From: an uncultured Lachnospiraceae bacterium
GTDB lineage: Bacteria; Bacillota; Clostridia; Oscillospirales; CAG-272
DNA: 64,000 nt
Assembly (NCBI GenBank): GCA_964628455.1
Contig: CAZVPD010000003.1
Span: 2,046 to 66,045, forward strand
Direction: 5' to 3'
This document shows, one piece after another, positions 26,323-52,898 of the stretch (positions are counted from its first letter, which is position 1; every line of letters starts with the position of its first letter). The notes beneath the pieces are model-generated. The model did no database searches. It was not told the origin of the DNA and saw only the letters and a list, made by a program, of their open reading frames with translations. The translations under genes were made by a program, and so were the position numbers.

Positions 26323-26617
26323 TTCAAATACCTCTTTTAGTTTTTTTATATGGAAGGATATACTTTACTTCATCGGATATTTCCTCTTCCGAATAAACAT
26401 TATACATTATATATGCGGATGTTGTTTACCAAAATGTTAATTTATATTGAATTCGGTTTTTTTAGCGGTAAACGCCGTTTATATAATCCGATATTAATAT
26501 TATTCCCTTGATATTTAAAAAAACCGGTGATATAATCGTATATTATATATTATATATCAAAAATCCGATATCAGGATATCCCCAAAGAAATTTATATGAC
26601 GGAAGGTATTCGCTTTC

Positions 26618-27457
26618 ATGGAAACCGAAACAAAAAAGTCTGCTGCTCCAAAGCTGTTTTTCATCCTGACTTTATTGGCATCAGCGGCGGCGGCGCTGAT
26701 ACAGGCATTTCTTTTTACCTCGAATTATGACGAAAAGCTCAATCTTTATCATACAGGCACTTTTTTACCCTTGGTTTTTTATATTGCCGTATTTGCTGCT
26801 GCGCTTTTCTGCGCCTCTTCCTATTTTATAACGAAAAACAACACCGTCATGAAAATACTGCCCGCTCCCGGCCGTTTTGTTGTCTTCACTGCGATATTGG
26901 GCGGATTACAACTCGGTGCAGCTGTTCTGTTTAATATATACTACTATGTGACGGGAGTATATTCCGGTATGACATCTCTGCGCGCCGCTGTTTTTATAAC
27001 CGCCGTTCCGGCAGCCGTTTATTTTATAATCACGGCGCTGACCGGAAATCCGAAAAAAAACATACTTATAATATGCGGATTTTTTACCGTGATCTGGGCG
27101 GCGCTTTACCTCATGTGTATTTATTTCGACATGTCGTCTCCCTTAAACAGCCCTGTGCGTATCCTGAATCAGCTTTCGCTGATTACGGTTATGCTTTATT
27201 TTATATTTGAATTGCGATATCTGCTCGATAAGCCCCGGCCGCGCTTTTATCTGCCGGCATCGCTGCTCGCAATCCTTTTCATCTCGCTGTCTTCCGTTTC
27301 CGACCTGATCCTGACTTTTACCGGATTCCGTTCTTCCACGCAGGACACCGTATTCCGTATAGCCGAAGCTGCCATCATGCTTTATATCACCGCCCGGCTC
27401 AGCAGCGTTTTGATGAACCGGAAAACACCTCCGGCGGAGCAGCGCCTGGAAGAATGA
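26618..27457 (+). CDS. hypothetical multi-pass membrane protein
   Basis: 279 aa, GGAAGG RBS, about 7 hydrophobic segments. No family motif recognised, including no ABC permease EAA loop. Confidence 0.55.
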   Translation: METETKKSAAPKLFFILTLLASAAAALIQAFLFTSNYDEKLNLYHTGTFLPLVFYIAVFAAALFCASSYFITKNNTVMKILPAPGRFVVFTAILGGLQLGAAVLFNIYYYVTGVYSGMTSLRAAVFITAVPAAVYFIITALTGNPKKNILIICGFFTVIWAALYLMCIYFDMSSPLNSPVRILNQLSLITVMLYFIFELRYLLDKPRPRFYLPASLLAILFISLSSVSDLILTFTGFRSSTQDTVFRIAEAAIMLYITARLSSVLMNRKTPPAEQRLEE

Positions 27458-27625: not shown

Positions 27626-28393
27626 TTATACCGCCACAACCGTCACACCCGCCCCGCGAAGATCCGAAAGATGGTCGGGCGAAGCGCTCGAATTTGTCAC
27701 GATACAATCGGCACAGGTTACGGGAGCTATGTCGGCAAACGCGACGCGTCCGATTTTCGAGTAGTCGGCGGCAATAATAACCGAAGCGGACTGCGCTATC
27801 ATGCGCCTCGATATTTCGGTTTCATTGGCATAATACAGGGTCAGACCGCATTCGCGGTCGATTCCGTCCACCGAAAGCACCAGTTTGTCCGCATGATAGC
27901 AGGACAGCTGACGAAGTGCGTCGTCTCCGTAAGTGAAAAGGAATTTGGGATTGATGAGACCTCCCAGAAGCATGACATTAAAACTTTTATAGGTGGAGGC
28001 TTCCGCTGCGATGGGAAGAGAATTTGTAACCAGAGTCAGATTATGCCTGTTGCGGAGGGCACGCAGCACATAGGTCATGGTGGTTCCCGAATTAAGCATG
28101 ATACTGTCGTTGTCGTGTATCATGGAGGCGACCCTTTCGGCGATAATCTTTTTTTCGGTTTCGTTTGCCGAAAGACGCTCTTTCAGGTCCATCTCATGGT
28201 ATAGCTTGGACGAACTGACGGCACCGCCGTGCACCCTTGACAGCAGTCCCTGAAGGGACAGAAATTCCAGATCTCCCCTCACCGTCACCTCGGAAATACC
28301 GAAGAGGGCACTGAGACTGCTCACCCTGACTTCTCCTTTTTCCCCGAGAAGTTCCAGTATTTTTTCCCGCCGCTGGTCCGCGTTATATTCCAT
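27626..28393 (-). CDS. DeoR/GlpR family transcriptional regulator
   Basis: ORF trimmed to ATG 28393. MEYNADQRREKILELLGEKGEVRVSSLSALFGISEVTVRGDLEFL winged HTH plus a DeoR C-terminal effector domain. Confidence 0.85.
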   Translation of the reverse strand: MEYNADQRREKILELLGEKGEVRVSSLSALFGISEVTVRGDLEFLSLQGLLSRVHGGAVSSSKLYHEMDLKERLSANETEKKIIAERVASMIHDNDSIMLNSGTTMTYVLRALRNRHNLTLVTNSLPIAAEASTYKSFNVMLLGGLINPKFLFTYGDDALRQLSCYHADKLVLSVDGIDRECGLTLYYANETEISRRMIAQSASVIIAADYSKIGRVAFADIAPVTCADCIVTNSSASPDHLSDLRGAGVTVVAV

Positions 28394-28458
28394 CACCCAA
28401 TACCCCCGTGTTTTCAGAACGGATGCACTTAGCATAGCATAATCGCCTTATAATTCTG

Positions 28459-28487
28459 TTGACATTTTGTTAATTTTATGCTATAAT
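28459..28487 (+). promoter_or_regulatory. consensus sigma-A type promoter of the nine-gene operon
   Basis: TTGACA (28459-28464), 17-nt spacer, TATAAT (28482-28487). Divergent from the DeoR gene. Confidence 0.6.
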
Positions 28488-28569
28488 ATTATACGTAAAT
28501 TATCCGAAACCTATACGAAGGCAATATGAAAGAATCCATAAAAAAGATCAGATGTAAAGGGGATATGTT

Positions 28570-30090
28570 ATGTCACAGCTTCTAATCGGATGGGCTCAGC
28601 GCGATGTTTCCACAGAAAAACCGGTTAACATACCGGGACAGTTTCATATGCGGATCTCGCAGGGAATTATGGACCCGCTTTTCGTAAGCGCGCTTGCCGT
28701 CGATGACGGCAGGGACTCGGTCATTTTTTTATCCGCGGACCTTGTTGTCATCCGCTGCTTCCTGCTGGATGAAATCCGGGCGAAAGTAGCCGCGAAAAAT
28801 CCCGCGATCAAAACCGAAAAAATACTTATGAATGCCACGCATGCTCACACCGGAGCAAGCCATTATTCGGATACCGGATGGGTAGACAGCAAATCGAACG
28901 GCAGGTCCGGCGGCGCAATGCCCGATGTGGGTATTAAAATAGCTTCGGGTGATGAATACCGTGACTTTCTGTCAGGGCAGGCGGCGGACGCGGTCTGCGA
29001 AGCCTGGGAAAAAAGGGTTCCCGGCGGTATTGCGTACGGGTACGGCTATGCCGTTGTTTCACACAGCCGCCGCGTGCTTTACTTTGACGACACGTCAAAG
29101 CGTCCCGGAAGCATGGCAACCGGCTACATGGTGAACGGACACGGGGTCATGTACGGAAATACAAACGACGAAAATTTTTCGGGATATGAAGCCGGGTCGG
29201 ACCATTTTATCAATATATTATATACTTTCGATGCCGGCGGAAAACTGACGGGAGCCGTCATCAACGTTCCCAGCCCTTCGCAGAATTCGGAACACGAGCA
29301 TCGTCTGTCGGCCGACTTCTGGCATGACGTCCGCACCGCCATACGTGCCCGGCACGGAAACATCTTTATCCTCCCCCAATGCGCGGCGGGCGGGGATCTT
29401 TCCCCGCGTATTCTGCACTATAAAAAAGCGCAGGACAGAAGATTCCGTTTAAAATACGGAATGAATGAAACCGAACTGGCGGCAAGAAAAGACATCGCGG
29501 AGCGAATTTCCGCCGCTTTCGACGAGGTTTTATCCTGGGCAAAAAACGATATAAAAACCGACGTGAAGGTGAATCACCGGACGGAAACAGTCCTGCTGTC
29601 CAAGCGCCCCATATCGGACGAGGAACTGGCTTTCTGTACGGACGCTTTAAAGAAGCTGAAAGAAGTTCCGTTTAAAACAGAAGGGGCTTCACCCACGGAA
29701 CTGCTGACTTTTAACTCCTCGCTCGAGGCTCAGCGAAACAGATTCGAACGGATTATCCAGCGATACAACGAGTTTGATAAGGAGCCGAAGCTTCCGATGG
29801 AACTTCATGTGCTTCATATCGGCGATATCGCCTTTGCATCCAACCGTTTTGAACTGTATATGGACTTCATGCACCGCATACAGGCGCGTTCTCCTTTCGA
29901 GCAGACTTTTATTGTGCAGCTTGCAGGCGTTCCCGGACCCGACGGCGGATCCTATCTCGCCACCGAACGCGGTGCGGAAAACAAAGGATACAGCGCCTGT
30001 CTTTTCTGCAATGTTGTGTCACCGGAGGGCGGTCAGGAACTTGTTGAGGAAACACTTAAGCTTCTTAATGAAATAAAAAAAATATCCTGA
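28570..30090 (+). CDS. hypothetical protein with neutral/alkaline ceramidase N-terminal-like domain
   Basis: 506 aa. The N-terminal pattern IGWAQRDVS...DPLFVSALAVDDGRDSVIFLSADLVVI and NATHAHTGASHY resembles the Ceramidase_alk family. No signal peptide. Confidence 0.5.
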   Translation: MSQLLIGWAQRDVSTEKPVNIPGQFHMRISQGIMDPLFVSALAVDDGRDSVIFLSADLVVIRCFLLDEIRAKVAAKNPAIKTEKILMNATHAHTGASHYSDTGWVDSKSNGRSGGAMPDVGIKIASGDEYRDFLSGQAADAVCEAWEKRVPGGIAYGYGYAVVSHSRRVLYFDDTSKRPGSMATGYMVNGHGVMYGNTNDENFSGYEAGSDHFINILYTFDAGGKLTGAVINVPSPSQNSEHEHRLSADFWHDVRTAIRARHGNIFILPQCAAGGDLSPRILHYKKAQDRRFRLKYGMNETELAARKDIAERISAAFDEVLSWAKNDIKTDVKVNHRTETVLLSKRPISDEELAFCTDALKKLKEVPFKTEGASPTELLTFNSSLEAQRNRFERIIQRYNEFDKEPKLPMELHVLHIGDIAFASNRFELYMDFMHRIQARSPFEQTFIVQLAGVPGPDGGSYLATERGAENKGYSACLFCNVVSPEGGQELVEETLKLLNEIKKIS

Positions 30091-30141
30091 TTATCATCCG
30101 GCCTGAAACAACACCCGGACTCAGCAAGGAGAAGAACCGAC

Positions 30142-31497
30142 ATGATAAAATCACCTTCCGTCGCTTTTGCCGGATTCGGCGAAATCAATACGCCGCGCGA
30201 TATTCTCGTCCGAAAGTGCTCCAAAGCCGCGCAAAACCTTCTGGATCTTGGACTTGAACTGCGCACCGTATACCCGATCACCGACGATCCCGATGAAAAA
30301 GATATAAAAAATGCAGTTGCGGAATTTAAAACTTTTGATTTTGACGTGCTTATACTGTGTATTGCCGGATGGATCCCCTCTCACGCCGTTATAAAAGTTG
30401 CCGAAGAATTCAGGCATCTGCCGATGGTGCTGTGGGGGCTTTGCGGCTGGGAAGAAGACGGACGCCTGATAACAACGGCGGACCAGGCGGGAACGACGGC
30501 GCTGCGCAAAACAATGTCCGATATCGGTTATAGTTTCCGTTTTGTTTACGAGATCGCCGGACTTCCCTCCCGTGCTCCCCGTGTCGCCGATTACTGTGCC
30601 GCGGCTTCCGCCGCAAAAACGCTTCGCCGTACCAAAGCGGGGATGATGGGCTACCGTGATATGAATCTCTACGGCACATTGTATGACGGTCCATCGCTGA
30701 AACGCACGACAGGCGTAGAAATCGAAACTTTTGAGATGCTTGAAGTTGAGCAGCGATATCGGTCGGTTTCGGAAGAAGAGATCAGCGATATTATAAACGG
30801 TCATATTAAAAAATGGCGATTTCTGAAGGAAGCCGACCCTTCTTCTCTCCGCAAAGCCGCGGGATATTATATCGCCGTCCGCGATATCGCACGCATGCGC
30901 GGCTACAAGGCGGTTTCGCTGAAGGATGTCGACGGAATGAAAAAGCTGCTCGGATATCCGCCGGCCCCTGTTTTCATGCTGCTTGCGGATATCGACGGCA
31001 TCTGCGTCGTACCCGAAAATGATTCCCTGGGCTGCGTCACACAGCTGATTATAAAAGAACTGATCGGCCAGTGCGGCTGCTATCTGGAATTTTACGAGTT
31101 CTTCGCGGACAGGGTGCTTGCCGGAGTTCCCGACTTTATCCCCGCCGAGGTTACGGAAGGGGAAACAACCGTGATCCCCGCGGCTTTCGGCGAACTGTCG
31201 CAGGGTATCCTCAATGTATCGGAACTGAAGGAAGGCGAGCTGACCATGTGCCGTCTTTCCTATACAGGCGGTAAATATTCGATGCACATGCTTCTCTGCA
31301 GAGGCGTGCGCCCGCGCAGATGGGAAGAAGCCGGCTGGACGCAGCCGGCACCCCGCCTGCCGGCTCTTGAAATTCTTCTAGACGACGTCGGGGCATTTGC
31401 AGAGAAAGTCACGTCGCAGCATTATTTCATATGCTACGGGGACAACACGCGCCGTATCACGGATCTGTGCTCCATACTCGGAATCGATGTCTGCTGA
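30142..31497 (+). CDS. L-fucose/L-arabinose isomerase family-like protein
   Basis: 451 aa. N-terminal VAFAGFGEINTPRD..., an ILCIAGWIPSHAV region and C-terminal HYFICYGDNTRRITDLCSILGIDV resemble FucI/AraA-related (COG2407-type) proteins. Confidence 0.55.
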   Translation: MIKSPSVAFAGFGEINTPRDILVRKCSKAAQNLLDLGLELRTVYPITDDPDEKDIKNAVAEFKTFDFDVLILCIAGWIPSHAVIKVAEEFRHLPMVLWGLCGWEEDGRLITTADQAGTTALRKTMSDIGYSFRFVYEIAGLPSRAPRVADYCAAASAAKTLRRTKAGMMGYRDMNLYGTLYDGPSLKRTTGVEIETFEMLEVEQRYRSVSEEEISDIINGHIKKWRFLKEADPSSLRKAAGYYIAVRDIARMRGYKAVSLKDVDGMKKLLGYPPAPVFMLLADIDGICVVPENDSLGCVTQLIIKELIGQCGCYLEFYEFFADRVLAGVPDFIPAEVTEGETTVIPAAFGELSQGILNVSELKEGELTMCRLSYTGGKYSMHMLLCRGVRPRRWEEAGWTQPAPRLPALEILLDDVGAFAEKVTSQHYFICYGDNTRRITDLCSILGIDVC

Positions 31498-31530
31498 ATA
31501 AAAGAAATCCACCCGGACCGGAGGAAAATC

Positions 31531-33705
31531 ATGCTGCCGATTTATAAAAATCCGGAAGTATCGGAAACCGAACGTGCCGCCGACCTGCTGTCGAGGATGA
31601 CCACAGCCGAAAAACTCGCGCAGATGGTCATGAGGGGCAGCATTGCCGACCTGAGGCGAATGGCCGAAGCGGGAGAACTGCCCGAGACGGGCGTCAGCTG
31701 CGTTTATGTCTCCCAGCCTGTATCAACCGATACGCTCGATTATATACAGCGCTGTCTGGTCGAAAAAACCCGGCTGGGTATTCCCATGATCGTCATGGGC
31801 GAATCGCTGCACGGAGCCATGATTGCCGGAGCGACGGTTTTCCCGCAGGCTATCGGCATGGGGGCCACTTTCAGCAAGCCCCTCATGAGCGAAGCGGCCG
31901 CGCATATAGGCGCCGAAGTGCGCGCATCCGGGGTGCGTCAGACCTATGCGCCCAATCTTGACCTTTCACGCGACCCGAGGTGGGGCCGAACGGAGGAAAA
32001 CTTCGGTGAGGACCCGTATCTTACTTCGCGGATGGGCGTCGCTTATATAAAAGCCCTTCAGTCGAAGGGAGTCGCTTCTTCTCCGAAACACTATATCGCG
32101 CACGGTTCTCCCGAAGGGGGGATCAACATCGCTCCGGTTCACATCGGACTGCGTGAATTTTATGAAAATATGTTCGAACCGTTCTGCGCCGCATTCAAAG
32201 AAGCGGGTGCTATGTCTGTTATGCCGGCATACAGCGAATTTGACGGCATACCGGTCCACGCGTCGCGTTTTTTCCTGACCGACGTCCTCAGGGGGGAAAT
32301 GGGCTTTGACGGATTTACGGTATCTGATTTCGGTGCCGTTTATATGCTGATGAGCGCCCATCATACCGCCGCCGATGCCCTTGAAGCGGGGAAAGCGGTC
32401 CTTGACGCCGGCCTTGATCTCGAAGCGCCCGGCGCTTTCGGTTTCGGCGGGGATTTCGGGCGTGCCGTCGAAAACGGCGAGGTCGATATGGTGAAAATCG
32501 ATGAAGCGGTTCTGCGTATCCTGCGGATTAAAATCAGGCTGGGGCTTTTCGAAAATCCGTATACTGGCTCCGGAGCTCCTTTTCATACCGCCGAAGCAGC
32601 CTCCTGCGCCCTTCGCTGCGCGCATGAATCGATCGTATTGCTCGAAAACAACGGCATTTTACCCCTTAGCGGCAATATAAAAAAGATTGCTCTGGTCGGT
32701 CCGAACGCAGACAGCGCGCAGCTTGGGGACTACACCGCCCCCGAAGCGGCAAAACGGGCTGTGACGCTGCGTGCCGCGCTTGAATCGAGGCTGGGCAGCA
32801 GCCGGGTGCTCTACGAACGCGGCTGCAATATCGGTTCCGGAGATGAAGCCATGCTCGGCCGTGCCGTATCCGCCGCAAAAGAAGCGGGCATTTGCATTGC
32901 GGTTTTAGGCGACAACAGCAATTATTACGGCGGGGTCGGCTGGGGCAGTCCCGAAGACACGGGAACCGTGACCTGCGGCGAGGGGTTTGACCTGTCTTCT
33001 CTTTCCCTGCCCGAACCGCAGAAAAAGCTGATTCGCGCAATCCGCGGCGCGGGCGTTCCCGTTATATGCATACTGGTTACCGGACGGCCGTATGCCGTCG
33101 GAGAGGAGGCTTCCCTTTCGGACGCGCTGCTTGAAGCCTGGTATCCCGGAGAACACGGCGGGACGGCCATTGCGGACATCCTGTTCGGCGATGTCTGTCC
33201 GTCCGGGCGGCTTCCGATCTCTTTTCCCCGTTCCGCGGGTCATCTCCCCTGCTTTTACAATCACAAGGTTTCCGCGCGGGGTTTTTACAGGCAGCCGGGA
33301 TCACCGGAAAAAGCAGGCCGCGATTATGTTTTTGATACCCCCGAGGCTCTCTATCCATTCGGATACGGGCTTAGTTACACATCGTTTGCCTACGGCGGTC
33401 TGAAAGCCGAAGTAAACGGCACGGACGCCACCGTCTTCGTTGAGGTCAGAAATACGGGTTTGTGTGCGGGTGCCGAGGCAGTATTGCTTTTTCTACGCTG
33501 CCATAAAAGCCGTATAACGCCGTTTGTGCGCCGTCTGCGCGGTTTTGAAAAGGTGTTCCTCAAACCGGGAGAAAGCGCCGTGTTAACCTTTAAACTCGAT
33601 GCAGCGGATTTTTCGTTTATAAACGAAAAATACTGCCGTGAAACGGGTTACGGCAGATACACCGTTATGATAGGAGATAAAAACATTGAAATCGACATCG
33701 TATGA
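31531..33705 (+). CDS. glycoside hydrolase family 3 (beta-glucosidase/BglX-like)
   Basis: 724 aa. Contains KLAQMVM, GIPMIVMGESLHG, SRDPRWGRTEENFGEDPYL and FTVSDFGAV (nucleophile region), plus a C-terminal Fn3-like domain. Confidence 0.9.
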   Translation: MLPIYKNPEVSETERAADLLSRMTTAEKLAQMVMRGSIADLRRMAEAGELPETGVSCVYVSQPVSTDTLDYIQRCLVEKTRLGIPMIVMGESLHGAMIAGATVFPQAIGMGATFSKPLMSEAAAHIGAEVRASGVRQTYAPNLDLSRDPRWGRTEENFGEDPYLTSRMGVAYIKALQSKGVASSPKHYIAHGSPEGGINIAPVHIGLREFYENMFEPFCAAFKEAGAMSVMPAYSEFDGIPVHASRFFLTDVLRGEMGFDGFTVSDFGAVYMLMSAHHTAADALEAGKAVLDAGLDLEAPGAFGFGGDFGRAVENGEVDMVKIDEAVLRILRIKIRLGLFENPYTGSGAPFHTAEAASCALRCAHESIVLLENNGILPLSGNIKKIALVGPNADSAQLGDYTAPEAAKRAVTLRAALESRLGSSRVLYERGCNIGSGDEAMLGRAVSAAKEAGICIAVLGDNSNYYGGVGWGSPEDTGTVTCGEGFDLSSLSLPEPQKKLIRAIRGAGVPVICILVTGRPYAVGEEASLSDALLEAWYPGEHGGTAIADILFGDVCPSGRLPISFPRSAGHLPCFYNHKVSARGFYRQPGSPEKAGRDYVFDTPEALYPFGYGLSYTSFAYGGLKAEVNGTDATVFVEVRNTGLCAGAEAVLLFLRCHKSRITPFVRRLRGFEKVFLKPGESAVLTFKLDAADFSFINEKYCRETGYGRYTVMIGDKNIEIDIV

Positions 33706-34300
33706 AGCGGCTGTCGCTTCGGTTGCTATAGAAACCGAAGCTGTCGGTTCTGTTTTAAGCAGCGTGGACCGCACGTCTTTCGCGCGTGCGGTGGATGCCC
33801 TGGCTTTCTGTCCCAGAATTATGACCTGCGCGTCCGGTTCGTCCGGCATTGCGGCGAAAAAATTTTCACACTCGCTCTGCTGCATCGAAAGAGGAGCCAT
33901 GTTCATGCCGCCTTCCGAAGCGGTCCACGGAGGACTCGGGGGACTCAAGCGCGAAGACTGTCTCGTTATGGTATCCCGCGGGGGGAAAACGTCCGAACTC
34001 TTGCCGATTATCGACGTCTGCAAAAAAAAAGGCGCATTGCTGATTGCGGTAACCGAAAACACCGATTCTCCGCTGGCACAAAGCGCCGATATTCTCTTGA
34101 AACTTTCGGTCGCCAAAGAAAGCGACAAACTGGGAGTCATGGCGACCGCAAGCTTTATGGCGACCGTTGCGCTGTTTGACGCTCTGCTCTGTGCGCTGAT
34201 AGAGGAAACAGGTTATACGCGGGAACAGTTCGGCCTTATACATCCGGGCGGTGCCGTGGGCGAAATGCTCAGCCGCAAAGAAACTCCGCTGCCCAAATGA
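33686..34300 (+). CDS. SIS (sugar isomerase) domain protein
   Basis: 204 aa. TTG start with AGGAG 8 nt upstream, overlapping the GH3 stop by 20 nt. Contains CASGSSGIAAKKF, VMVSRGGKTSEL, LIAVTENTDSPLA. Confidence 0.75.
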   Translation: MKSTSYEAAVASVAIETEAVGSVLSSVDRTSFARAVDALAFCPRIMTCASGSSGIAAKKFSHSLCCIERGAMFMPPSEAVHGGLGGLKREDCLVMVSRGGKTSELLPIIDVCKKKGALLIAVTENTDSPLAQSADILLKLSVAKESDKLGVMATASFMATVALFDALLCALIEETGYTREQFGLIHPGGAVGEMLSRKETPLPK

Positions 34301-34316
34301 GCATTAAGGAGCATGT

Positions 34317-35042
34317 ATGTATAAAAATTATAAGATACGCCCCCCTTTCTTTGAAATAGGTCCGAAGGCCTATCTGTACGGCGAGAACATGCTGAAACTC
34401 GCGCTCGCCGTCGACGCCTCCGCCGGACGCTATGACGTCGATGTGATCGTCACACCTCAGTATACGGATATCCGGCTTCTGGCCGAACATACCCGGAGGA
34501 TACACGTATACGCCCAGCATATGGACTTTCTGCCCCCGGGCAGGGGTCTCGGTTCGGTGCTCCCGGAAGCCGTAAAAGCTGCGGGCGCCGTCGGCGTCAT
34601 GCTGAACCACGCCGAGAAAAAACTGACGCTTGAGGAAATCGAAAAAACAATCGCCCGGGCTGACGAAGTCGGGCTGGCTACCATCGTATGCGCGGATACG
34701 CTCGAAGAAATCGAAGCCGTCGCGCGCATGTCCCCCAATCTGATCGTCGCGGAACCGACAGCTCTTATAGGAACAGGCGTAACCAGCGATTCGGATTATG
34801 TAACAGGCACCATTGAGATCGTCAGGCGCATCAATCCCGAAATAATGGTGCTGCAGGGGGCCGGGATCAAAGACGGCAGCGACGTTTACCGGGTCATCGC
34901 CGCGGGAGCACAGGCCACGGGTTCAACCAGCGGTATCATCAAAGCGCCGGACCCTGCGGTCATGGCAGACGAAATGCTGGCTGCGCTGCGCCGCGCATGG
35001 GATGAGCGCACCGGCGGGAACCGGCGGAAAGCCGGCACCTAA
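34317..35042 (+). CDS. triose-phosphate isomerase family protein (short, archaeal-like paralog)
   Basis: 241 aa. Contains FEIGPKAYLYG (Lys), MLNHAEKK (His) and IVAEPTALIGTG (Glu plus phosphate loop). Confidence 0.7.
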   Translation: MYKNYKIRPPFFEIGPKAYLYGENMLKLALAVDASAGRYDVDVIVTPQYTDIRLLAEHTRRIHVYAQHMDFLPPGRGLGSVLPEAVKAAGAVGVMLNHAEKKLTLEEIEKTIARADEVGLATIVCADTLEEIEAVARMSPNLIVAEPTALIGTGVTSDSDYVTGTIEIVRRINPEIMVLQGAGIKDGSDVYRVIAAGAQATGSTSGIIKAPDPAVMADEMLAALRRAWDERTGGNRRKAGT

Positions 35043-35081
35043 AGGATATGCTTTTAATTTACGGATAAAGGAGTAGGCAGA

Positions 35082-35582
35082 ATGGCAGTTTACAGAGGAA
35101 CGGTAAAACTTCAGTCGCACGACCATATGCCCTGTTTTCACAATATAACCGGCGAAGTCAGAAAGATCGCGGCCGAATCGGGAATAAAAAACGGGATCTG
35201 CGTCGTTTATTCTCATCACACCACCTGTTCGGTGATGACGCAGGAATGTTCGCATGATCTGAATTTTTTCGGGCGTGAATACCTGCAGATGGACCTGATC
35301 GAAATTATGGAAAAACTTATCCCGACCTGCCGCACCGAAGGACAGTATCACCATCCCGGTCCGAAACACATCGATTTTGCGCTGACTTTTCCCGACGAGG
35401 AGCCGAAAGGCAGTTTAAACACAGACGCGCACCTGCGCTCCTGCTTTTTCGGCCGTTCGGAGACCATCGTTTTAAACGACGGCGTTCTGTCCCTCGGTGA
35501 TTTCGGATTTATTTATTTTATCGACTGGGATCAGGTCCGCGAACGCGAACGCGTATGCGAAATTCAGATCATCGGAGAATAA
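35082..35582 (+). CDS. YjbQ/UPF0047 family protein (secondary thiamine-phosphate synthase family)
   Basis: 166 aa, AAGGAG RBS. Contains CFHNITGEVRKI and GICVVYSHHTTCSVMTQE. Confidence 0.8.
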   Translation: MAVYRGTVKLQSHDHMPCFHNITGEVRKIAAESGIKNGICVVYSHHTTCSVMTQECSHDLNFFGREYLQMDLIEIMEKLIPTCRTEGQYHHPGPKHIDFALTFPDEEPKGSLNTDAHLRSCFFGRSETIVLNDGVLSLGDFGFIYFIDWDQVRERERVCEIQIIGE

Positions 35583-35622
35583 CCCTACGAGCCTTCTTAC
35601 ATTTAATACAGGGGGATTGATT

Positions 35623-37131
35623 ATGAAAAGGAGTATCCTGCAGCAGATCATTGTTCTGTTTCTTTGCCTTCTGACTGTCCTGCCCGCACTTTCCTGCGCG
35701 GAAAAAACCGGCACTGTTCCTTCGGATCTGTCAGACACAGCGGCGGCCGAAACGGAACCGCCGGAAGAAACCCGCGCTGTGGCCAATCTGCCGGAAACAG
35801 ATTTCGCGGGAAGAGCTTTCCGGATATTCGGGCGTGAAAATACAACCTATCCGCAATTTACAAACTTCGAATTTTATGCCGAAAGCGAAAACGGAGAGGT
35901 GGTCAACGATGCCGTTTTTGCCCGCAACCGGACAATAGAAGAGAAATATAATATTAAAGTCGAACAGAACCTGCTGGACGACACAACGGGGCATATCAAG
36001 AAAACCGTTACTTCCGCCGATGATGCCTACGATATTGCGGCACTGCATAATTTTACAAGCGTTTCCTCCCTGTCCATGGGCGGATATCTGACCGACTTCA
36101 ATGCAGTAAACAACATCGACTTTTCCATGCCCTGGTGGAATACCGATGTGAATGCCTCGCTTTCATTTGCCGGAAAGCTTTATTATACGACAAGCGACTA
36201 TCTGCTGCTCGATAAGCAGAGGACCTATATTCTGATCTTCAATAAAAAAATCATGGAGGATTATTCCCTGGGAAATTTGTATCAGCTGGCTTTCGACGGC
36301 AAATGGACGACGGACGCCATGCTTTCCATGATCACAAAGGTATCTACCGACCTGGACGGGGACGGCAAGATGACCGATCTTGACATGTACGGCCTCGGGA
36401 TGGATTCGTATCTTTCGTTTTACGTTTTCTATGCGGCGATGGGCGGTACGATGGTGGGCCGCGACGAAAATGACCTGCCGATTCTTGCTATGAACAACGA
36501 ACATAATATCTCCGTCATCGAAAAAGCGATGGCCCTGACCTGCAATACGGATATCGCGTTTTTCTGCAATGATTATAACGGCAAGGTGTCATATGATTTC
36601 TGGTCGGTCATGGGCAATATGTTCAACGCGGGACGCGAACTGTTCATGTCCGCGTTTCCTCATTCGTTAAAAACGATTTCCGCAAATACCGATGTGAATT
36701 TCGATTACGGCGTCATCCCCTTTCCGAAATTCGACGAAGCGCAGGAAAAATATCTCACGGTCCCCGACAACTACCACTCCATGGTACTGACGATCCCCAC
36801 AAGCAACCTCGACACGGACTTCGCTGGATTTATGCTCGAGGCGTTTTCGGCGGAATCCGCTTATACGACGCTGCCGGCCTATTATGAGGTTTCCACCAAA
36901 ACCAAATATACCTACGATGAGGAAAGCGCAAAAATGCTGGATATCATCTTTGACGGCATCACATACGACCTCGGCGCCATCTATGACTGGGGTGCGATCA
37001 ATACGCTGCTCAAGGACACCATCCCCAATAAGAAAGAGAATATTTTCGCATCGGAATACGCCAAACGCGAACCGAAGGCGCTGACTGCCCTGCAGAAAAC
37101 CATCGACGAGTATCTTTTGATCGCGGAATGA
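35623..37131 (+). CDS. extracellular solute-binding lipoprotein, orphan
   Basis: ORF trimmed to ATG 35623 (MKRSILQQIIVLFLCLLTVLPALSC lipobox). Blocks VVNDAVFARN, MPWWN, DLDGDG, IPFPKFDE, LPAYYE, MLDII. Confidence 0.8.
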   Translation: MKRSILQQIIVLFLCLLTVLPALSCAEKTGTVPSDLSDTAAAETEPPEETRAVANLPETDFAGRAFRIFGRENTTYPQFTNFEFYAESENGEVVNDAVFARNRTIEEKYNIKVEQNLLDDTTGHIKKTVTSADDAYDIAALHNFTSVSSLSMGGYLTDFNAVNNIDFSMPWWNTDVNASLSFAGKLYYTTSDYLLLDKQRTYILIFNKKIMEDYSLGNLYQLAFDGKWTTDAMLSMITKVSTDLDGDGKMTDLDMYGLGMDSYLSFYVFYAAMGGTMVGRDENDLPILAMNNEHNISVIEKAMALTCNTDIAFFCNDYNGKVSYDFWSVMGNMFNAGRELFMSAFPHSLKTISANTDVNFDYGVIPFPKFDEAQEKYLTVPDNYHSMVLTIPTSNLDTDFAGFMLEAFSAESAYTTLPAYYEVSTKTKYTYDEESAKMLDIIFDGITYDLGAIYDWGAINTLLKDTIPNKKENIFASEYAKREPKALTALQKTIDEYLLIAE

Positions 37132-37180
37132 CCGGATCTTTCCGGATATTTCAAAGTTCAATAACGAAAGGCTGCCGACT

Positions 37181-38647
37181 ATGAAATCTTCTGTTACCGT
37201 TCGTTTGATCTCTTTGCTTTGTCTGTCTGCCCTGCTGTTTCCGCTGCTTGCATCGTGTTCCGAAGGCGGGGCGGAAGCGACTGAAAGTCTGACCGAAGCC
37301 CTGACCGAGACGCCCGCCACGGAAAAGCCTTTTCTTGACGACCTTCCCTCAGACCTTGACTTTGAAGGCAGGACCATACGCATGGTCACCAACGACAAAG
37401 CTTCCTTCGATACGGTCGAGGATGCCGCCGATGTTGTCGATGTGGAGGTATACAAGAGAAACCGTAAAATCGAAGAGCGGCTTGACATCCTGCTCGAACC
37501 GGTCATTGACGAGAACTGGGGGGTCGCGGCCTCTCTTCTGACCGCAAGCGTGCTTGCCGGAAGCGATGATTACGATCTTTACGGCGGTTATTGCTACTGG
37601 TCAATCGCACTTGCCACTTCCGGCTATATGCTGAATCTGGCAAATATGGAACATCTGAATCTTGAAGCTCCGTATTGGGGAAAAAAGTTTATCGATGCGA
37701 TGGCTTATAAAGACTTCGTTTACTGGGTCACCGGAGACATCGTTTTAAATTATACCAACGGAATCTATGCGACTTATGTCAATCTCGAACAGTGGGACAA
37801 CTATATAGGAGGCATCGATATCTATGACCTGGTGCGCAGCGGCCAATGGACCCTTGACCGCGTAAAAGAATACGCGGAAGCCGCCTACACCGACCTCAAC
37901 GGCAACGGAAAAACGGACGCGGAAGATTTTGTAGGCTATGTTTATACAACGGAAGACCCGATCGACGGCATGGCGATGGCGGCCGGCGTTACTTTCACGG
38001 AATTCGACGAAGACGGCGTCCCCTATATCACGCTGCTCGGAAGCGACAGGGCGGTGACCTTCAATGAAAAACTGACCGCTTTATGCACCAGCCACGCGTC
38101 CCTTCTGACAGCGTCGGACGGCGGTTATTCCTCGGTAAAACTCTTCGGTTCTCTGCATGCCCTGTTTAATATCGGACGGCTGGCTCACGCGGTGACTTTT
38201 CTGCGTGATATGAAAGAAGATTTTGCAATCATCCCGCCGCCGAAACTTGATGAGGCGCAGGAAACCTACCTGACCACCCTCCATGACGGCACCACGATCC
38301 TCGGTATTCCGAAAACCGCGTCCGCCGAAGCGATTGAAGCCGTTTGCGCGACACTTGAAGCTCTTGCTTCGGAAAGCTATAAGTCGCTTACTCCCGTTTA
38401 CCTGGATGTGGCTTTGAAAAACAAATATACCCGGGACGAACAGTCGGCCGAAATGATCGACCTTATCCGTCAGAATATCGTTTCCGACTTCGGGTTTCAA
38501 TACACGGCTACCGGATTCAATAACTTTTTCCGGGCACAGACCAAAAAAGGAGCCGAAGTAGCGTCAACAATAGCTAAAAGCGAAAAGAGCTGGACTGCTG
38601 CGCTCGATAAAATACTGCTGGCACTCGAAGAGAATGCCGGACAATAA
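37181..38647 (+). CDS. extracellular solute-binding lipoprotein, orphan
   Basis: 488 aa. Signal MKSSVTVRLISLLCLSALLFPLLASC. Blocks DLNGNG, IIPPPKLDE, MIDLI. More diverged paralog. Confidence 0.8.
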   Translation: MKSSVTVRLISLLCLSALLFPLLASCSEGGAEATESLTEALTETPATEKPFLDDLPSDLDFEGRTIRMVTNDKASFDTVEDAADVVDVEVYKRNRKIEERLDILLEPVIDENWGVAASLLTASVLAGSDDYDLYGGYCYWSIALATSGYMLNLANMEHLNLEAPYWGKKFIDAMAYKDFVYWVTGDIVLNYTNGIYATYVNLEQWDNYIGGIDIYDLVRSGQWTLDRVKEYAEAAYTDLNGNGKTDAEDFVGYVYTTEDPIDGMAMAAGVTFTEFDEDGVPYITLLGSDRAVTFNEKLTALCTSHASLLTASDGGYSSVKLFGSLHALFNIGRLAHAVTFLRDMKEDFAIIPPPKLDEAQETYLTTLHDGTTILGIPKTASAEAIEAVCATLEALASESYKSLTPVYLDVALKNKYTRDEQSAEMIDLIRQNIVSDFGFQYTATGFNNFFRAQTKKGAEVASTIAKSEKSWTAALDKILLALEENAGQ

Positions 38648-38667
38648 ATCTGCAAGGAGAGAAAACC

Positions 38668-40620
38668 ATGTCAGCTTATATCCCTTTCCCGGCGTATTAC
38701 GATGACGCCCCGCTCGATCTTTCCTTTGTCTATAAAAATGAAAAGCCTGCCGGACGGCACGGCTTTCTGAAAGCGGAAGGGGCTTCGTTTGTCTTCGAGG
38801 ACGGAACTCCGGGGCGCTTCTGGGGAACGAATTTCAACGGCGGAGCCAATTTCCCCGAATTCGGCTGCTCCGAAAAAACAGCGCGGCGCTTGGCGAAAAT
38901 CGGCGTGAACATCGTAAGGTTTCATCAGCTGGATGCCGAGTGGGACACGCCGAATCTTTTCGCTTTCAGCAACGGAAAACGCTGCGGCAGCACAACCGAA
39001 CTCGACACGGAGAGCATGAAAAGGCTCGATTATCTTGTTTACTGCCTCAAAGAGCAGGGGATCTATGTATATATCGACATTTTTACCTACAGGAAGTTTA
39101 AAACAGGCGACGGTGTGGAAAATGCGGGTGCTCTTGCCGATGCCGCGAAACCTTATTCGGGGTATAACCGCCGTCTGATCGACCTTCAGAAAAAGCTGGC
39201 TTATGACCTATGGAACCATTATAACCCGTATACGGACCTGTATTACAAGGACGACCCGGTCTTTGTCCTGTGTGAAGTTGTCAACGAAAGCGACCTGTTC
39301 TCCCGCAGCATCAGCACCGAACCTTATTTACAGGAGTTCCGTCATCTTTTTAAAGTATGGCTTGAAGAAAAGGGCATTCGGTTTGATGCCGGCTCTTGTG
39401 ACGTAAACGGTTCGGAAGAACCTCTTATCCGTTTTAAAATCGAACTCCAGGAAAAATATTACACCGAAATGATCGGATTTATGAGGGAGATCGGGGTGAA
39501 GATCCCCCTGACCGGCACCAACTGGTCCATAAACAAAGCGTGCTCCAAAACTCAGCTGGTGACGGATTACACCGACAGCCATGTTTATTATTATGACTGG
39601 CGCTGGGGTGAATTTAAAAAATCATGCATGAATAAAGCGATCACCGAAACCCCCGACTGCGGGTTCGGCATGCTCTCCACCATGCGCGCAGCCGACAAGC
39701 CTTTCTTCGTCTCGGAATGGGATATGCCCTGGCCGAATGAATACCGTGCCGAAAGTCCGATTCTGTTTGCGGCAGTCGGTTCTTTTCAGGGCTGGTCGGG
39801 TTTTACGATCCATACATACGCATACAATGCGCGGCTTATGCATATGAATATTCTGGGCAAAGAATTTTCGTCCGACACAATAGGAAATGTTCCCTATCGC
39901 GAGGGTATTTTCTCCACATGGAACGATCCGGCGAAATTCGGTCTGTTCTATCACGCAGCCCTGATTACCCGGCGCGGAGACGTTCCCGTGTCCGAGAAGC
40001 TCATCGAAGTAAATACCGACCCCTTTAAAGGCGGCGGAAGGGCGGCTTTTACGGCATCAAGCGAGCAGAACCGCGTCGCCTGCAACTACAACGGCTCCGG
40101 TGTCGATGAAGACAATTCTCTCGTTGACCTGGATTCGGGTGAAGTCAGGTCGGATAACGGCTGCCTGTACCGAAGCTGGCGAAAGCGCTACGGTACGATT
40201 GACACTTTACGCACAAAATGCGCATACGGTTTCCTTGCCGAAAACGGTAAAATCGAACTGAACGGGATCACTTTCGAATGTTCGACCGATTTCGCCGTTC
40301 TGGCTTTGAGTTCCCTCACCGACATGCCCCTTTGCGAGACGGATAACATTTTATTCACCGCTGTCGGCCGGGCTAAAAATACGGACGCCGTCTTTGACGG
40401 TGAAGTCATGAAGGAATACGGCAGACCTCCGATTCTGATCGAAGTGATCGAAGCCGAAATCGCTTTAAAGACATCGCAGCCGAATCTCAGATGCAGGGCA
40501 GTCAACGCGGAGGGTTTTTATGTCGGCACACTTCCTTCATGGTATGACGGGGAAGGAGTGTTTCACGTGAAAACCGGCGGGACGATGAGGAGCATGTACT
40601 ATCTGATCGCCGCGGAATAA
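38668..40620 (+). CDS. clan GH-A TIM-barrel glycoside hydrolase, GH5-like
   Basis: 650 aa. Contains RFWGTNFNG, VNIVRFHQLD, CEVVNES (NE acid/base) and FFVSEWDMPW (candidate nucleophile Glu). No signal peptide. Confidence 0.6.
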   Translation: MSAYIPFPAYYDDAPLDLSFVYKNEKPAGRHGFLKAEGASFVFEDGTPGRFWGTNFNGGANFPEFGCSEKTARRLAKIGVNIVRFHQLDAEWDTPNLFAFSNGKRCGSTTELDTESMKRLDYLVYCLKEQGIYVYIDIFTYRKFKTGDGVENAGALADAAKPYSGYNRRLIDLQKKLAYDLWNHYNPYTDLYYKDDPVFVLCEVVNESDLFSRSISTEPYLQEFRHLFKVWLEEKGIRFDAGSCDVNGSEEPLIRFKIELQEKYYTEMIGFMREIGVKIPLTGTNWSINKACSKTQLVTDYTDSHVYYYDWRWGEFKKSCMNKAITETPDCGFGMLSTMRAADKPFFVSEWDMPWPNEYRAESPILFAAVGSFQGWSGFTIHTYAYNARLMHMNILGKEFSSDTIGNVPYREGIFSTWNDPAKFGLFYHAALITRRGDVPVSEKLIEVNTDPFKGGGRAAFTASSEQNRVACNYNGSGVDEDNSLVDLDSGEVRSDNGCLYRSWRKRYGTIDTLRTKCAYGFLAENGKIELNGITFECSTDFAVLALSSLTDMPLCETDNILFTAVGRAKNTDAVFDGEVMKEYGRPPILIEVIEAEIALKTSQPNLRCRAVNAEGFYVGTLPSWYDGEGVFHVKTGGTMRSMYYLIAAE

Positions 40621-40630: not shown

Positions 40631-40671
40631 AAAAAAGGGCTGCCTTCTGATTTTTAAGGCAGTCCTTTTTT
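40631..40671. terminator. bidirectional rho-independent terminator
   Basis: AAGGGCTGCCTT / AAGGCAGTCCTT 12-bp stem with one mismatch, flanked by an A-run and a T-run, between convergent genes. Confidence 0.7.
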
Positions 40672-40690: not shown

Positions 40691-42157
40691 TTATTCCATA
40701 GACTGAATCGTTGTGATAAGTTTGTCGATTGCCGACTGCATCAGTTTTTCTTTTCCGGCAAACATACTCACAACATCGGTTTTCTTGTTCGGATGAAGCC
40801 GCAGAAAGGCTTCGTTAAATCCGCCGAACTGATAAAACTCGCCAAGATCATACACTCTGGTTGAAAATATGATATCCAGCATATCCACCGACTCTTCATC
40901 GCGTGAATATTTATCCCTGAGCACCGTGTCATAATAAGCCGGGATCAGCGTATACCGGGATTCCGCAGCCAGCGCTTCGAGTATAATTCCGGTTCGTTCC
41001 GTATCCGGTGCGGATTTTGGAACAACCATGATTCCCGAAGTGTGGATCGAAACGGAATGTCCGTAATTCTCCTGCGTTTCGCTGAACTTGGGCACGGGAA
41101 GGATTCCGAAATCGCTTTCGATTGACCGGAAGTTCTCTGTGACGGTGATTCTCTCGACATAAAACAGAAATCGGTCTGTTCCCATCATTGTAATCGGAGT
41201 GATGTTTTTATCCGTGATGTTGTCGGTATGCAGGAAGTAGGATGTGTCGTAGATCATCTCGATGATTTTTTCGGCTACGCCGATGGTATGCTCATCGTTG
41301 AAAGCGATGACGGGCAGGTCGTTTTCATCCTTTGAAGCATAGCGCCCCCCGCTGCCGTGCAGGATGATATACGTCCAGTCATCATAAGCCACAATTCCCC
41401 AGATATCCGCTTCATTCATCATTCCGTCGCCGTTGAGGTCCGATACCACGCTTTTCGCAAGTTCCTCCATTTTATCAAGCGTCCATTTGTTTTCATAAAC
41501 CAGGCTGTACAGATTCCCGGCCGAATAATTCTCAGCCACATTTTTGTTGTAATAGATGCACGCCGTGGCTCCCTTGTCCATCAGAGTGATATCGGATTCC
41601 ATCATGAAAAGTCTGCCGTCGATCGACAGTTCGGCCGCAGCCTGAGAGTCCCACCATGGTTTGTCCCAGTCGGCGAATTCAAGTTCATTCAGGTCAAGAA
41701 GCACACCCGCCGAAACAAGCTGCGTGCTTTCGTAAGTCCTGGGAAAGTAAACGTCAAAAGCGTTATCGCCGGCCTGAACGGCTTTTTTACAGACGGAGAT
41801 CAGCTGATTGATTTCGATATATTCACTGGCTATGCTTATTTTATACTTTTCCTCGATTGTCCGGTTGCGTGAATAGACAGCGTCGTTGATCACTTCTCCG
41901 TCCAGAACCTCGGCGTCAAGGTCGGTCAGAATCGTCCAGCCGTCGATGACCCAGTGTGCAATGTTAAACTGATAACCGTCATAATCCGAATCCGGAAGTT
42001 CGGGGTATACGCGGGTATCCTCAGGCTGTGTTTCGACGGCTTCAGACGTCGTCTCCGCAGTCGCTTCCGGAGACGCACCGCCCTCCCCGCAGGCAGCGGC
42101 AGAACAGATGAATGCAGTCAGAATCAGCAGGGCGGCAAAACGGGCGAATAAACTCAT
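40691..42157 (-). CDS. extracellular solute-binding lipoprotein, orphan
   Basis: 488 aa, GGAGGG RBS. Signal MSLFARFAALLILTAFICSAAAC. Blocks VINDAVYSRN, KPWWD, DLNGDG, ILPVPKFSE, IPAYYD, MLDII. Confidence 0.8.
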   Translation of the reverse strand: MSLFARFAALLILTAFICSAAACGEGGASPEATAETTSEAVETQPEDTRVYPELPDSDYDGYQFNIAHWVIDGWTILTDLDAEVLDGEVINDAVYSRNRTIEEKYKISIASEYIEINQLISVCKKAVQAGDNAFDVYFPRTYESTQLVSAGVLLDLNELEFADWDKPWWDSQAAAELSIDGRLFMMESDITLMDKGATACIYYNKNVAENYSAGNLYSLVYENKWTLDKMEELAKSVVSDLNGDGMMNEADIWGIVAYDDWTYIILHGSGGRYASKDENDLPVIAFNDEHTIGVAEKIIEMIYDTSYFLHTDNITDKNITPITMMGTDRFLFYVERITVTENFRSIESDFGILPVPKFSETQENYGHSVSIHTSGIMVVPKSAPDTERTGIILEALAAESRYTLIPAYYDTVLRDKYSRDEESVDMLDIIFSTRVYDLGEFYQFGGFNEAFLRLHPNKKTDVVSMFAGKEKLMQSAIDKLITTIQSME

Positions 42158-42307
42158 TACAATCCCTCCTCTATCATCTTATATAAATATATAATAGCAT
42201 ATTCCTGACGGACTGTCAATAATCAATACAAACTCGCGGACCATTGCCAAATAATTCTGAGGACGGCAGAATCTCCGTTATAATGATTCCGCCTTATAAA
42301 ATTGTCC

Positions 42308-42336
42308 TTGACATAAACAGAACTTTTATATATAAT
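42308..42336 (+). promoter_or_regulatory. consensus sigma-A type promoter
   Basis: TTGACA (42308-42313), 17-nt spacer, TATAAT (42331-42336), 63 nt upstream of ATG 42400. Confidence 0.6.
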
Positions 42337-42399
42337 AATACCGTAAACAGCCCGCAGGCAGGTTATTTTAAATTTATTATATATCTCGGAGGTTTTCAG

Positions 42400-52895: not shown

Positions 52896-52898
52896 TTT

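Follow-up and report, generated by a model that had tools for sequence, protein, structure and literature searches.

The window analysed here is a 64,000-nucleotide stretch of contig CAZVPD010000003.1 (assembly GCA_964628455.1) from an uncultured Lachnospiraceae bacterium. It contains nine genes on the + strand, here called g1 to g9, which follow a single promoter and lie divergent from a gene for a DeoR-family repressor. An earlier note on this DNA had described the block as a DeoR-linked sugar operon without an assigned pathway, with a perfect promoter, nine packed genes and one strong terminator, and our sequence scans bear out this description. The features of the locus are the following.

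27626–28435, − strand: DeoR-family repressor gene, divergent from the operon, with HTH_DeoR and DeoRC domains
28459–28487, + strand: sigma-70-type promoter, TTGACA-17-TATAAT with a TG extension, 12/12 match
28493–28531, + strand: putative DeoR operator, four repeats (ACGTAA, CCGAAA, ACGAAG, ATGAAA) with 11-nt phasing
28570–30090, + strand: g1, predicted ceramidase-fold protein, 506 aa, cytoplasmic
30142–31497, + strand: g2, predicted isomerase of the FucI/AraA superfamily (ISO), anchor of the conserved module described below
31531–33705, + strand: g3, GH3 exo-beta-glycosidase, cytoplasmic
33686–34300, + strand: g4, single-domain SIS protein, KpsF/GutQ-like, 204 aa
34317–35042, + strand: g5, paralog of archaeal-type triosephosphate isomerase (TIM)
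35082–35582, + strand: g6, YjbQ/UPF0047 protein
35620–37131, + strand: g7, solute-binding lipoprotein
37181–38647, + strand: g8, second solute-binding lipoprotein
38668–40620, + strand: g9, predicted clan GH-A (beta/alpha)8 glycosidase with a C-terminal beta-sandwich, cytoplasmic
40631–40671, no strand assigned: intrinsic terminator, a hairpin with A and T tracts on either side
40691–42157, − strand: third binding-lipoprotein paralog (SBP_bac_1), convergent with the operon

Only two perfect (12/12) promoter sites were found in 16 kb, one of which is the operon promoter. The genes are tightly packed, the successive gaps from g1 to g9 being 51, 33, −20, 16, 39, 37, 49 and 20 nt, so that the range of −20 to 51 nt given earlier agrees with the open reading frame (ORF) coordinates. 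The terminator hairpin has a folding energy of −27.7 kcal/mol (z = −4.76), which none of 200 shuffled sequences equalled; it is possibly bidirectional and common to the operon and the convergent gene at 40691–42157. Promoter-like and terminator-like matches within the operon are no commoner than in shuffled sequence. From this arrangement, g1 to g9 are probably co-transcribed as a single operon, as the earlier note had also held. Pfam and NCBIfam profiles confirm the domain calls made there for g1, g2, g3, g4, g5, g6 and g9 (weakly for g1, g2 and g9), and the N-termini, judged by eye, agree with its statement that the enzymes lack signal peptides. In its overall layout the locus is a repressor-controlled sugar utilisation operon of a familiar type with an unusual set of enzymes.

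The repressor matches HTH_DeoR with 61.9 bits and DeoRC with 150.6 bits, both above the Pfam thresholds, and its best NCBIfam match is AgaR (196.5 bits, under the cutoff of 260). The putative operator array begins six bases past the −10 box with a repeat spacing of exactly 11 nt, and it is the sole site in the 64 kb, on both strands, with three phased CG[AT]A[AG] matches (0.028 expected by chance). Among related loci, 23 intergenic regions linked to DeoR contain the motif ACGAA[AG] 29 times, compared with about 5 expected (an approximately six-fold enrichment), and these copies are often phased by 11 or 22 nt. The array is also kept in the related locus L001, where DeoR is 87% identical; the promoter and the first ~50 nt of the leader are near-identical between the two, and the proteins differ by 7–17%. 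TATACG repeats had been considered as the operator and were dropped as lineage-specific, the phased ACGAA(A/G) repeats taking their place. Because of the unique phased array and the enrichment of its motif in relatives, the DeoR protein of the window appears to be the regulator belonging to the conserved module. The effectors of DeoR-family repressors are usually phosphorylated sugar intermediates, and by analogy the effector here is probably a phosphorylated intermediate as well, which argues that such a compound still forms in the lineage of the window. Moreover, the operator motif is shared with relatives that contain a kinase, which points to the same type of regulator and, by extension, to the same phosphorylated effector.

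The isomerase g2 is a distant member of its superfamily. Its Pfam matches are below threshold (Fucose_iso_C, 20.8 bits with a cutoff of 29.3; AraA_central, 19.6 bits with a cutoff of 24), and its best NCBIfam match is weak, namely the sulfoquinovose isomerase SftI (E = 6.7e-11, 41.6 bits vs a cutoff of 700). Matches to sequences in the PDB are faint, and many g2 homologs (64–68% identical) have a precomputed match to PF02952. Four residues with possible roles in the active site of such an enzyme, E316, E319, H382 and H427, are invariant in 84 of 84 sequences. We predict that g2 is an aldose-ketose isomerase of the FucI/AraA superfamily acting on a free sugar, as do the characterised members of the family.

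The three genes g4 to g6 form the part of the operon that is related to phosphosugars. The match of g4 to SIS is 71.1 bits, and the protein reaches 116 bits for the KpsF subfamily, under the cutoff of 203.7; with 204 aa it lacks the tandem CBS domains of the KpsF/GutQ arabinose-5-phosphate isomerases, which places it outside that family. It matches the single-domain SIS protein 3FXA from Listeria (E = 1.4e-51) and the single-domain phosphosugar isomerase 5UQI, and G51, S53, G54, E78, H81 and H186 are invariant in 32 of 32 sequences. For g5, the archaeal-type TIM model NF003302 is passed with 197.4 bits (cutoff 132), the TIM of Pyrococcus woesei (1HG3) is matched with E = 2e-46, and all 29 of 29 sequences share K17, H98, E146 and the phosphate loops. 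By score, catalytic Lys/His/Glu and phosphate loops, g5 is thus assigned to the archaeal-type TIM family; a role as the housekeeping TIM is unlikely, given its DeoR-controlled accessory context. Both proteins keep their catalytic and phosphate-binding residues, in line with their earlier classification as phosphosugar-type enzymes. Finally, g6 belongs to the YjbQ/UPF0047 family, with 93 bits for UPF0047 (cutoff 27), 74.4 bits for TIGR00149 (cutoff 67.75) and conservation of the motifs SHHTTCSV, YxHPG and NTDxHLR. Only promiscuous activities have so far been reported for YjbQ, and its overexpression in Escherichia coli feeds the C4 phospho-acid pool, 2-oxo-3-hydroxy-4-phosphobutanoate (PMC3010111).

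Of the two glycosidases, g3 is readily classified by its GH3 N-terminal, GH3 C-terminal and Fn3-like domains (219.8, 173 and 56.7 bits, all over the Pfam cutoffs). It reaches no NCBIfam equivalog cutoff, and its nearest solved structures are the beta-xylosidases 7ZB3 and 8C7F and an isoprimeverose-producing enzyme. For g9, the GH5 match of 19.2 bits falls short of the cutoff of 23.5, and the PDB sequence search gave E = 0.22. More generally, PDB sequence searches with g1, g2, g9 and the binding-protein profile returned nothing useful, which is why the folds of g1 and g9 were predicted. The AlphaFold2 (AF2) model of g9 (pLDDT 91) displays a clan GH-A barrel followed by a beta-sandwich, with fold matches to GH5 mannanases and mannosidases, GH35, GH164 and GH140 at 9–15% identity and E = 1e-13 to 1e-9. 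Across 48 sequences, N206-E207 and E350 do not vary, and in the model we infer the former to be the Asn-Glu acid/base pair and the latter the nucleophile. According to the model, then, g9 is a clan GH-A glycosidase outside any defined GH family. It recurs beside g1-family genes, for example in L090, where a ceramidase-like gene directly precedes it; in L091 it is directly preceded by a solute-binding protein (SBP) gene and two permease genes.

The most unusual member of the operon is g1. Its N-terminal match to Ceramidase_alk (PF04734) is weak (E = 4e-4, 19.6 bits vs a cutoff of 32.1) and covers only residues 29–108, with the sequence NATHAHTGASHY at residues 88–99. The AF2 model (pLDDT 81.6, pTM 0.87) has the neutral ceramidases 2ZWS, 2ZXC and 4WGK as its sole confident fold matches (E ~1e-22, TM ~0.62), and a profile built from 44 g1 homologs finds the ceramidases in the PDB with E = 4e-5. 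The zinc site of ceramidases we take to consist of two His, one Glu and one Tyr, with the catalytic His in a THTHSG motif. H91 and H93 of g1, in the motif THxHxG, align to H97 and H99 of the Pseudomonas ceramidase, a zinc-ligand and a catalytic histidine, and E411 and Y462, which are invariant in the g1 family, may be counterparts of the Glu and Tyr ligands of the ceramidases. The protein lacks the C-terminal beta-sandwich of ceramidases (506 aa vs 630–690 aa in the solved structures) and, by inspection, a signal peptide, and it sits among cytoplasmic sugar enzymes. The model thus gives g1 a ceramidase fold, yet the protein fails several of the tests for membership among the ceramidases. Glycosphingolipid breakdown by g1 and g9, as a ceramidase and a GH5-like endoglycoceramidase, was set aside: both proteins are cytoplasmic, both are remote homologs, and both lie among sugar-phosphate enzymes.

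Gene context offers a further view of g1. When metagenomes were scanned with the g1 alignment, 79 loci (L092–L170) were obtained, in which the g1-family members are 57–71% identical to g1; across metagenome-assembled genomes (MAGs) of Eubacteriales, Lentisphaeria and Kiritimatiellia, the family is 63–87% identical. Recurrent neighbours in the 79 loci are g9-type glycosidases (13), ISO (7), GH3 (5) and tandem g1 paralogs, as well as a block of DegT-type aminotransferases, Gfo/Idh/MocA oxidoreductases, AP_endonuc_2 and Amidohydro_2 genes (e.g., L111, L114, L117 and L125). The context of DegT, Gfo/Idh/MocA and Amidohydro_2 genes hints at amino-sugar catabolism. Given the aminotransferase context and the modelled ceramidase fold, our best guess, and only a guess, is that g1 is a de-N-acylase.

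Transport is represented by binding proteins only. Neither g7 nor g8 has a direct Pfam or PDB match, and both are related to the convergent paralog at 40691–42157, which passes SBP_bac_1 (30.2 bits, cutoff 26) and has its own 11/12 promoter at 42219–42191: g7, with an N-terminal signal and Cys26, is 34% identical to it (E = 1e-77), and g8, with a LASC lipobox, ~30% (E = 9e-45). The paralog may serve the same uptake system as g7 and g8. In total, five such binding lipoproteins (~490–505 aa, 27–36% identical) are encoded in the 64 kb, at 412–1929(−), 35620–37131(+), 37181–38647(+), 40691–42157(−) and 62351–63811(+). The earlier note had pointed out that a kinase and a membrane transporter are missing locally, and both ORF profile scans and tblastn across the 64 kb agree: no kinase, aldolase, ABC permease or ATPase, or MFS transporter was found among the scanned ORFs of at least 200 aa (shorter ORFs having been scanned in part), and tblastn of the window with the FGGY, FSA, MFS and CUT1 permease sequences of relatives detected neither genes nor pseudogene remnants. 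Five orphan SBP paralogs without a permease in the window make common permeases elsewhere plausible, and suggest that many binding proteins use few permeases. In other genomes, CUT1-type permeases are found near g1 in L105, L124 and L141 (with g9 adjacent in L105 only), and since g9 accompanies an SBP and permeases in L091, an ABC importer would be the normal partner of these enzymes. The window also encodes a membrane protein of 279 aa at 26618–27457(+), in which about eight hydrophobic stretches were counted by eye and which matches nothing in Pfam or NCBIfam; its gene has its own 11/12 promoter (26508–26536) and keeps its place upstream of the operon, by synteny, in both L001 and L010. Conceivably, this protein is an unclassified transporter.

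The relatives of the operon place these observations in a wider frame. Species-representative genomes were scanned with the g2 alignment, which confirmed at least 583 ISO relatives, and the best 80 of these at least 583 loci are all from Clostridia MAGs (human, chicken and ruminant gut, rumen and digester samples). Neighbourhoods were analyzed by tblastn and de novo ORF clustering, and loci in which ISO has 6 kb or more on each side, 37 in all, were taken as well-flanked. Among these 37, the genes found near ISO are:

ceramidase-fold paralog (~30% identical to g1): 31 of 37
FGGY kinase: 25 of 37
SIS: 20 of 37
TIM: 18 of 37
YjbQ: 18 of 37
DeoR: 17 of 37
FSA-type aldolase: 13 of 37
OPA-like MFS transporter: 9 of 37

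YjbQ mostly accompanies SIS and TIM, and the trio is present in 16 of the well-flanked loci. The commonest full order is DeoR / TIM-SIS-YjbQ-FGGY-ISO-FSA-ceramidase-fold, at times followed by the MFS gene (e.g., L005, L026, L046 and L089). The FGGY kinase of the relatives is nearest to the xylulokinase XylB (327 bits, under the cutoff of 380), and an FSA model is passed by their aldolase. MATE efflux genes were found repeatedly, in 12 loci. The substrate of the module may be anionic, or a product may be exported.

The proteins of the window are clearly related to members of this module, with identities of 64–68% for ISO, 43–76% for SIS, 69–79% for TIM (54–57% in four loci) and 49–87% for YjbQ. 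The window combines ISO, SIS, TIM, YjbQ and DeoR with the shared operator motif and has no FGGY gene beside ISO. The order nearest to its own is that of L008 and L009 (DeoR, ceramidase-fold, FGGY, ISO, SIS, TIM, YjbQ, SBP), from which it differs in that the kinase is missing, GH3 separates ISO from SIS, the ceramidase-fold protein is of another subfamily, and a second SBP and g9 are added. The sequence comparison thus presents the operon as a cut-down copy of a module found in hundreds of gut and rumen Clostridia genomes. The lineage of the window has no kinase, aldolase or MFS gene at the locus; it has GH3, two orphan lipoproteins and the g1 and g9 pair instead. The earlier characterization of the pathway as complete-looking did not hold in view of the FGGY, FSA and MFS genes that so many relatives carry near ISO.

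The nine-gene block also turned out not to be one conserved unit. Together with DeoR it recurs in full only in L001, at 83–93% protein identity, and elsewhere its parts occur as separate recurrent sub-modules. The operon is thus a mosaic that combines at least three recurring gene sets, namely g1 with g9 (sometimes with GH3), ISO, and SIS-TIM-YjbQ. This raises the question of whether the operon is a co-transcribed bundle of these modules, with different substrates or processes, brought together by chance rearrangement in the lineage. In keeping with such a bundle, the sub-modules occur alone: g1-family genes without ISO lie beside GH106, AraC/NAGidase genes or the DegT/Gfo-Idh-MocA/AP_endonuc_2 blocks, and in nine loci ISO has only a g1-like gene for company. 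However, a single promoter, a single operator array and a single terminator serve the nine genes, whose gaps never exceed 51 nt; ISO is accompanied by SIS, TIM or YjbQ in roughly half of the well-flanked loci and by the g1 family in 31 of the 37; and an independent relative, L011 (ISO-GH3-SIS-X-TIM-YjbQ), also has GH3 placed after ISO and before SIS. We consider a chance bundle unlikely.

The reading that we prefer, and to which we assign an even chance of being correct, is that the DeoR-repressed operon unites its three gene sets in one process, in which an oligosaccharide is captured and trimmed, a sugar is isomerised and a phosphosugar is processed, with the kinase and the permease acting in trans. 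In this scheme, the lipoproteins g7 and g8 would pass a probably beta-linked glycan fragment to an ATP-binding cassette (ABC) permease and ATPase encoded elsewhere, and GH3 (g3) and the clan GH-A enzyme (g9) would trim the oligosaccharide in the cytoplasm. The ceramidase-fold protein g1 would strip off a substituent, possibly an N-acyl group, after which g2 would turn the freed aldose into a ketose and an unlinked FGGY-type kinase would phosphorylate it. SIS (g4), TIM (g5) and YjbQ (g6) would then channel the ketose phosphate to central metabolism. By occupying the phased ACGAA(A/G) repeats, DeoR would cover the transcription start until a phosphorylated intermediate releases it. We infer each enzymatic step, the order of the steps and the DeoR effector.

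Most likely, the kinase and the membrane components of the ABC importer are encoded elsewhere and act in trans. Of the 37 well-flanked loci, 12 have no FGGY kinase, and this recurrence of kinase-less loci indicates that an unlinked kinase is common. The trio SIS-TIM-YjbQ is retained without a kinase in L001 and in L019, where the order SIS-TIM-YjbQ-ceramidase-fold-ISO lies on a contig of 584 kb and no kinase gene is found within 10 kb of it. The earlier note had left two explanations for the missing kinase, provision in trans and a substrate that is already phosphorylated; the former is favoured by the kinase-less loci, and the latter is disfavoured by the kinase beside ISO in relatives. Three observations weigh against the preferred scheme. 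In L010, 79–85% identical to the window, g1-ISO-GH3 occurs with the same upstream synteny, with another promoter and without DeoR. In the ceramidase-fold protein, a conserved proline aligns to H204, the second zinc ligand of the Pseudomonas ceramidase. Lastly, the MFS transporters of the relatives (L005, L054 and other canonical loci) are nearest to the organophosphate antiporters PgtP, UhpC and UhpT and to a D-galactonate transporter (96 bits, far below the cutoff), which is a poor fit to a plain neutral sugar.

The last of these points bears on a different explanation, in which the substrate is imported in an already phosphorylated or anionic form (a phosphoglycan fragment, a sugar phosphate or an acidic sugar), so that no kinase is needed in this lineage. 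Such an import would agree with the antiporter-like MFS genes, and DeoR, SIS and TIM all indicate phosphosugars. Nevertheless, the use of free sugars by characterised FucI/AraA-family isomerases argues against it, the relatives with an OPA-like MFS carry the FGGY kinase too, and the family-1-type binding lipoproteins of the window are typical of the import of neutral oligosaccharides. We regard this explanation as very unlikely.

A kinase could also be dispensable for another reason. In the sulfo-SFT/TAL pathway of Firmicutes, the isomerase SftI works together with the transaldolase SftT (PMC11968277), and by the same logic an unlinked transaldolase or FSA-type enzyme might split the ketose with glyceraldehyde-3-phosphate as the acceptor; phosphosugars would then form with no kinase of their own, and SIS and TIM would only balance the pools. 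The parallels are that SftI is the best, though weak, NCBIfam match of g2, that relatives pair their distant FucI-like isomerase with an enzyme of the TAL/FSA type (13 of the 37 loci) and have an anion-type transporter, that kinase-less loci are frequent and that both systems are found in gut Firmicutes. On the other hand, all FSA-bearing well-flanked loci also carry the FGGY kinase, which the sulfo-SFT/TAL pathway does not need, and there is no FSA/TAL gene in the window. Furthermore, the g2 score lies far below the SftI cutoff, and the operon has no sulfoquinovosidase, sulfolactaldehyde reductase or exporter of that pathway, the MATE efflux gene being present in a minority of relatives. A kinase-independent route is therefore quite unlikely in our view, and sulfoglycolysis itself was dropped, the weak resemblance to SftI being the sole pointer to it and the accessory genes being absent.

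Returning to the scheme with a kinase in trans, its logic can be compared with that of several known pathways. L-fucose and D-arabinose (FucI-FucK-FucA), L-arabinose (AraA-AraB-AraD) and L-rhamnose are degraded by pathways of isomerase, FGGY kinase and aldolase. The module shares with these the isomerase superfamily, a sugar-responsive repressor and, in relatives, FGGY beside ISO, often with an aldolase. It differs in that g2 is far from FucI, AraA and SftI, with all scores under the family cutoffs, in that the aldolase of the relatives is of the class I FSA type rather than class II, and in that SIS, archaeal-type TIM, YjbQ and the ceramidase-fold protein have no counterpart there, whereas the window copy lacks both kinase and aldolase. 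Neighbourhoods of unknown function that combine FucI-family and FGGY genes are common (PMC11968277).

A second comparison is with the Aga pathway for N-acetylgalactosamine and galactosamine, which comprises AgaR (of the DeoR family), the deacetylase AgaA, the SIS-domain deaminase/isomerase AgaS, a kinase and tagatose-bisphosphate aldolase. Besides the AgaR match of the window regulator, the logic is similar, with an amidase-like enzyme, a kinase, an SIS protein and an aldolase leading to triose phosphates, and the DegT, Gfo/Idh/MocA and Amidohydro_2 genes that often flank g1-family genes hint at amino-sugar chemistry. However, there are no Aga orthologs here, the SIS protein is KpsF/GutQ-like and not AgaS-like, and the Aga pathway has no FucI-like isomerase. 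Tetrose-phosphate routes, such as Brucella erythritol catabolism (EryH/EryI) and Mycobacterium threitol/erythritol catabolism, use paralogs of the TIM family and of the pentose-phosphate-isomerase type. They resemble the module in the TIM paralog, the second phosphosugar isomerase, FGGY (in relatives) and the sugar-phosphate repressor, and serve as a lead only, since the TIM here is archaeal-type with a fully canonical active site, SIS takes the place of RpiB and there is no dehydrogenase. Possible leads for the substrate chemistry are tetrose-phosphates, and arabinose-5-phosphate with glycolaldehyde (FSA with the KpsF-like SIS), the one further hint being the C4 phospho-acid pool that YjbQ overexpression feeds in E. 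coli.

The D-apiose transketolase pathway (ApsI, AplK and AptAB; PMC13001218) likewise has an isomerase followed by an FGGY kinase, and it too concerns plant cell-wall sugars and gut anaerobes; in addition, the fold matches of g9 include the GH140 apiosidase BT_1012, at rank 39. Orthology to the known D-apiose pathway was nonetheless rejected, because the FGGY kinases of the module are only 23–25% identical to AplK of E. coli and no transketolase genes are present. The rejection applies to orthology and does not extend to a new apiose route.

Several other gene sets were noted elsewhere in the window. Three URO-D-like paralogs, at 4150–5229(+), 8534–9547(+) and 9665–10864(−), surround a GH95 glycosidase and a nucleoside-hydrolase-like gene (5245–6132 and 6183–8537), and close to this cluster lie a PGA_cap gene (10827–12218) and a GH28-like gene (12430–13773), both of which also recur beside ISO in other genomes. 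Gfo/Idh/MocA genes are numerous, several of them paired with genes for xylose-isomerase-like TIM barrels (42244–44593, 55685–58841, 60408–61418, 13672–14742 and 25261–26322), and a sulfatase (58889–60280) and an AraC regulator are also found among these gene sets. The organism looks specialised for unusual glycan chemistry. A 250-aa low-complexity protein rich in Thr, Glu, Pro and Ala (24426–25178, − strand) has an N-terminal signal-like segment and a C-terminal hydrophobic anchor; it matches no family, and its position is conserved by synteny in both L001 and L010. At 45586–47775(−), a 729-aa fusion of a GT4 glycosyltransferase with a polysaccharide pyruvyl transferase adjoins a MORN-repeat protein (47888–48787). 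A GGGtGRT-family protein (15641–17388, − strand; 634 bits) lies beside a NifU-like protein, upstream of a cluster of PASTA Ser/Thr kinase, PP2C phosphatase and RlmN. Genes for SerRS, ParB, ParA and GidB are clustered at 49451–55097, and the chromosome origin may therefore be close to the window. With its listed TTG start, the ParA ORF has 422 aa and runs into gidB; its true start is probably later.

Our literature search found no paper linking these genes or describing the module, and nothing in the locus contradicts established principles. It is possible, although we lean somewhat against it, that the wider module (FucI-like ISO, ceramidase-fold protein, FGGY, single-domain SIS, archaeal-type TIM, YjbQ, FSA, and DeoR with its ACGAAA-repeat operator) constitutes a catabolic route that has not been described before, its substrate being a rare or modified sugar that might be N-acylated or anionic. 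If true, this would provide the first physiological role for YjbQ/UPF0047 and the first non-lipid role for the ceramidase fold, and the window would show such a route running with its kinase, aldolase and transporter unlinked. Knowing the substrate would define a nutrient niche for many uncultured Clostridia of the gut and rumen. The window amounts to a natural "deletion series" that reveals which parts can be unlinked, and it offers a clean operator motif for finding the regulon. It also gives a testable pathway context to a cytoplasmic ceramidase-fold protein that is ~65% identical across phyla, to a clan GH-A glycosidase without a family and to YjbQ, whose gain of a testable metabolic context is the main value of the finding.

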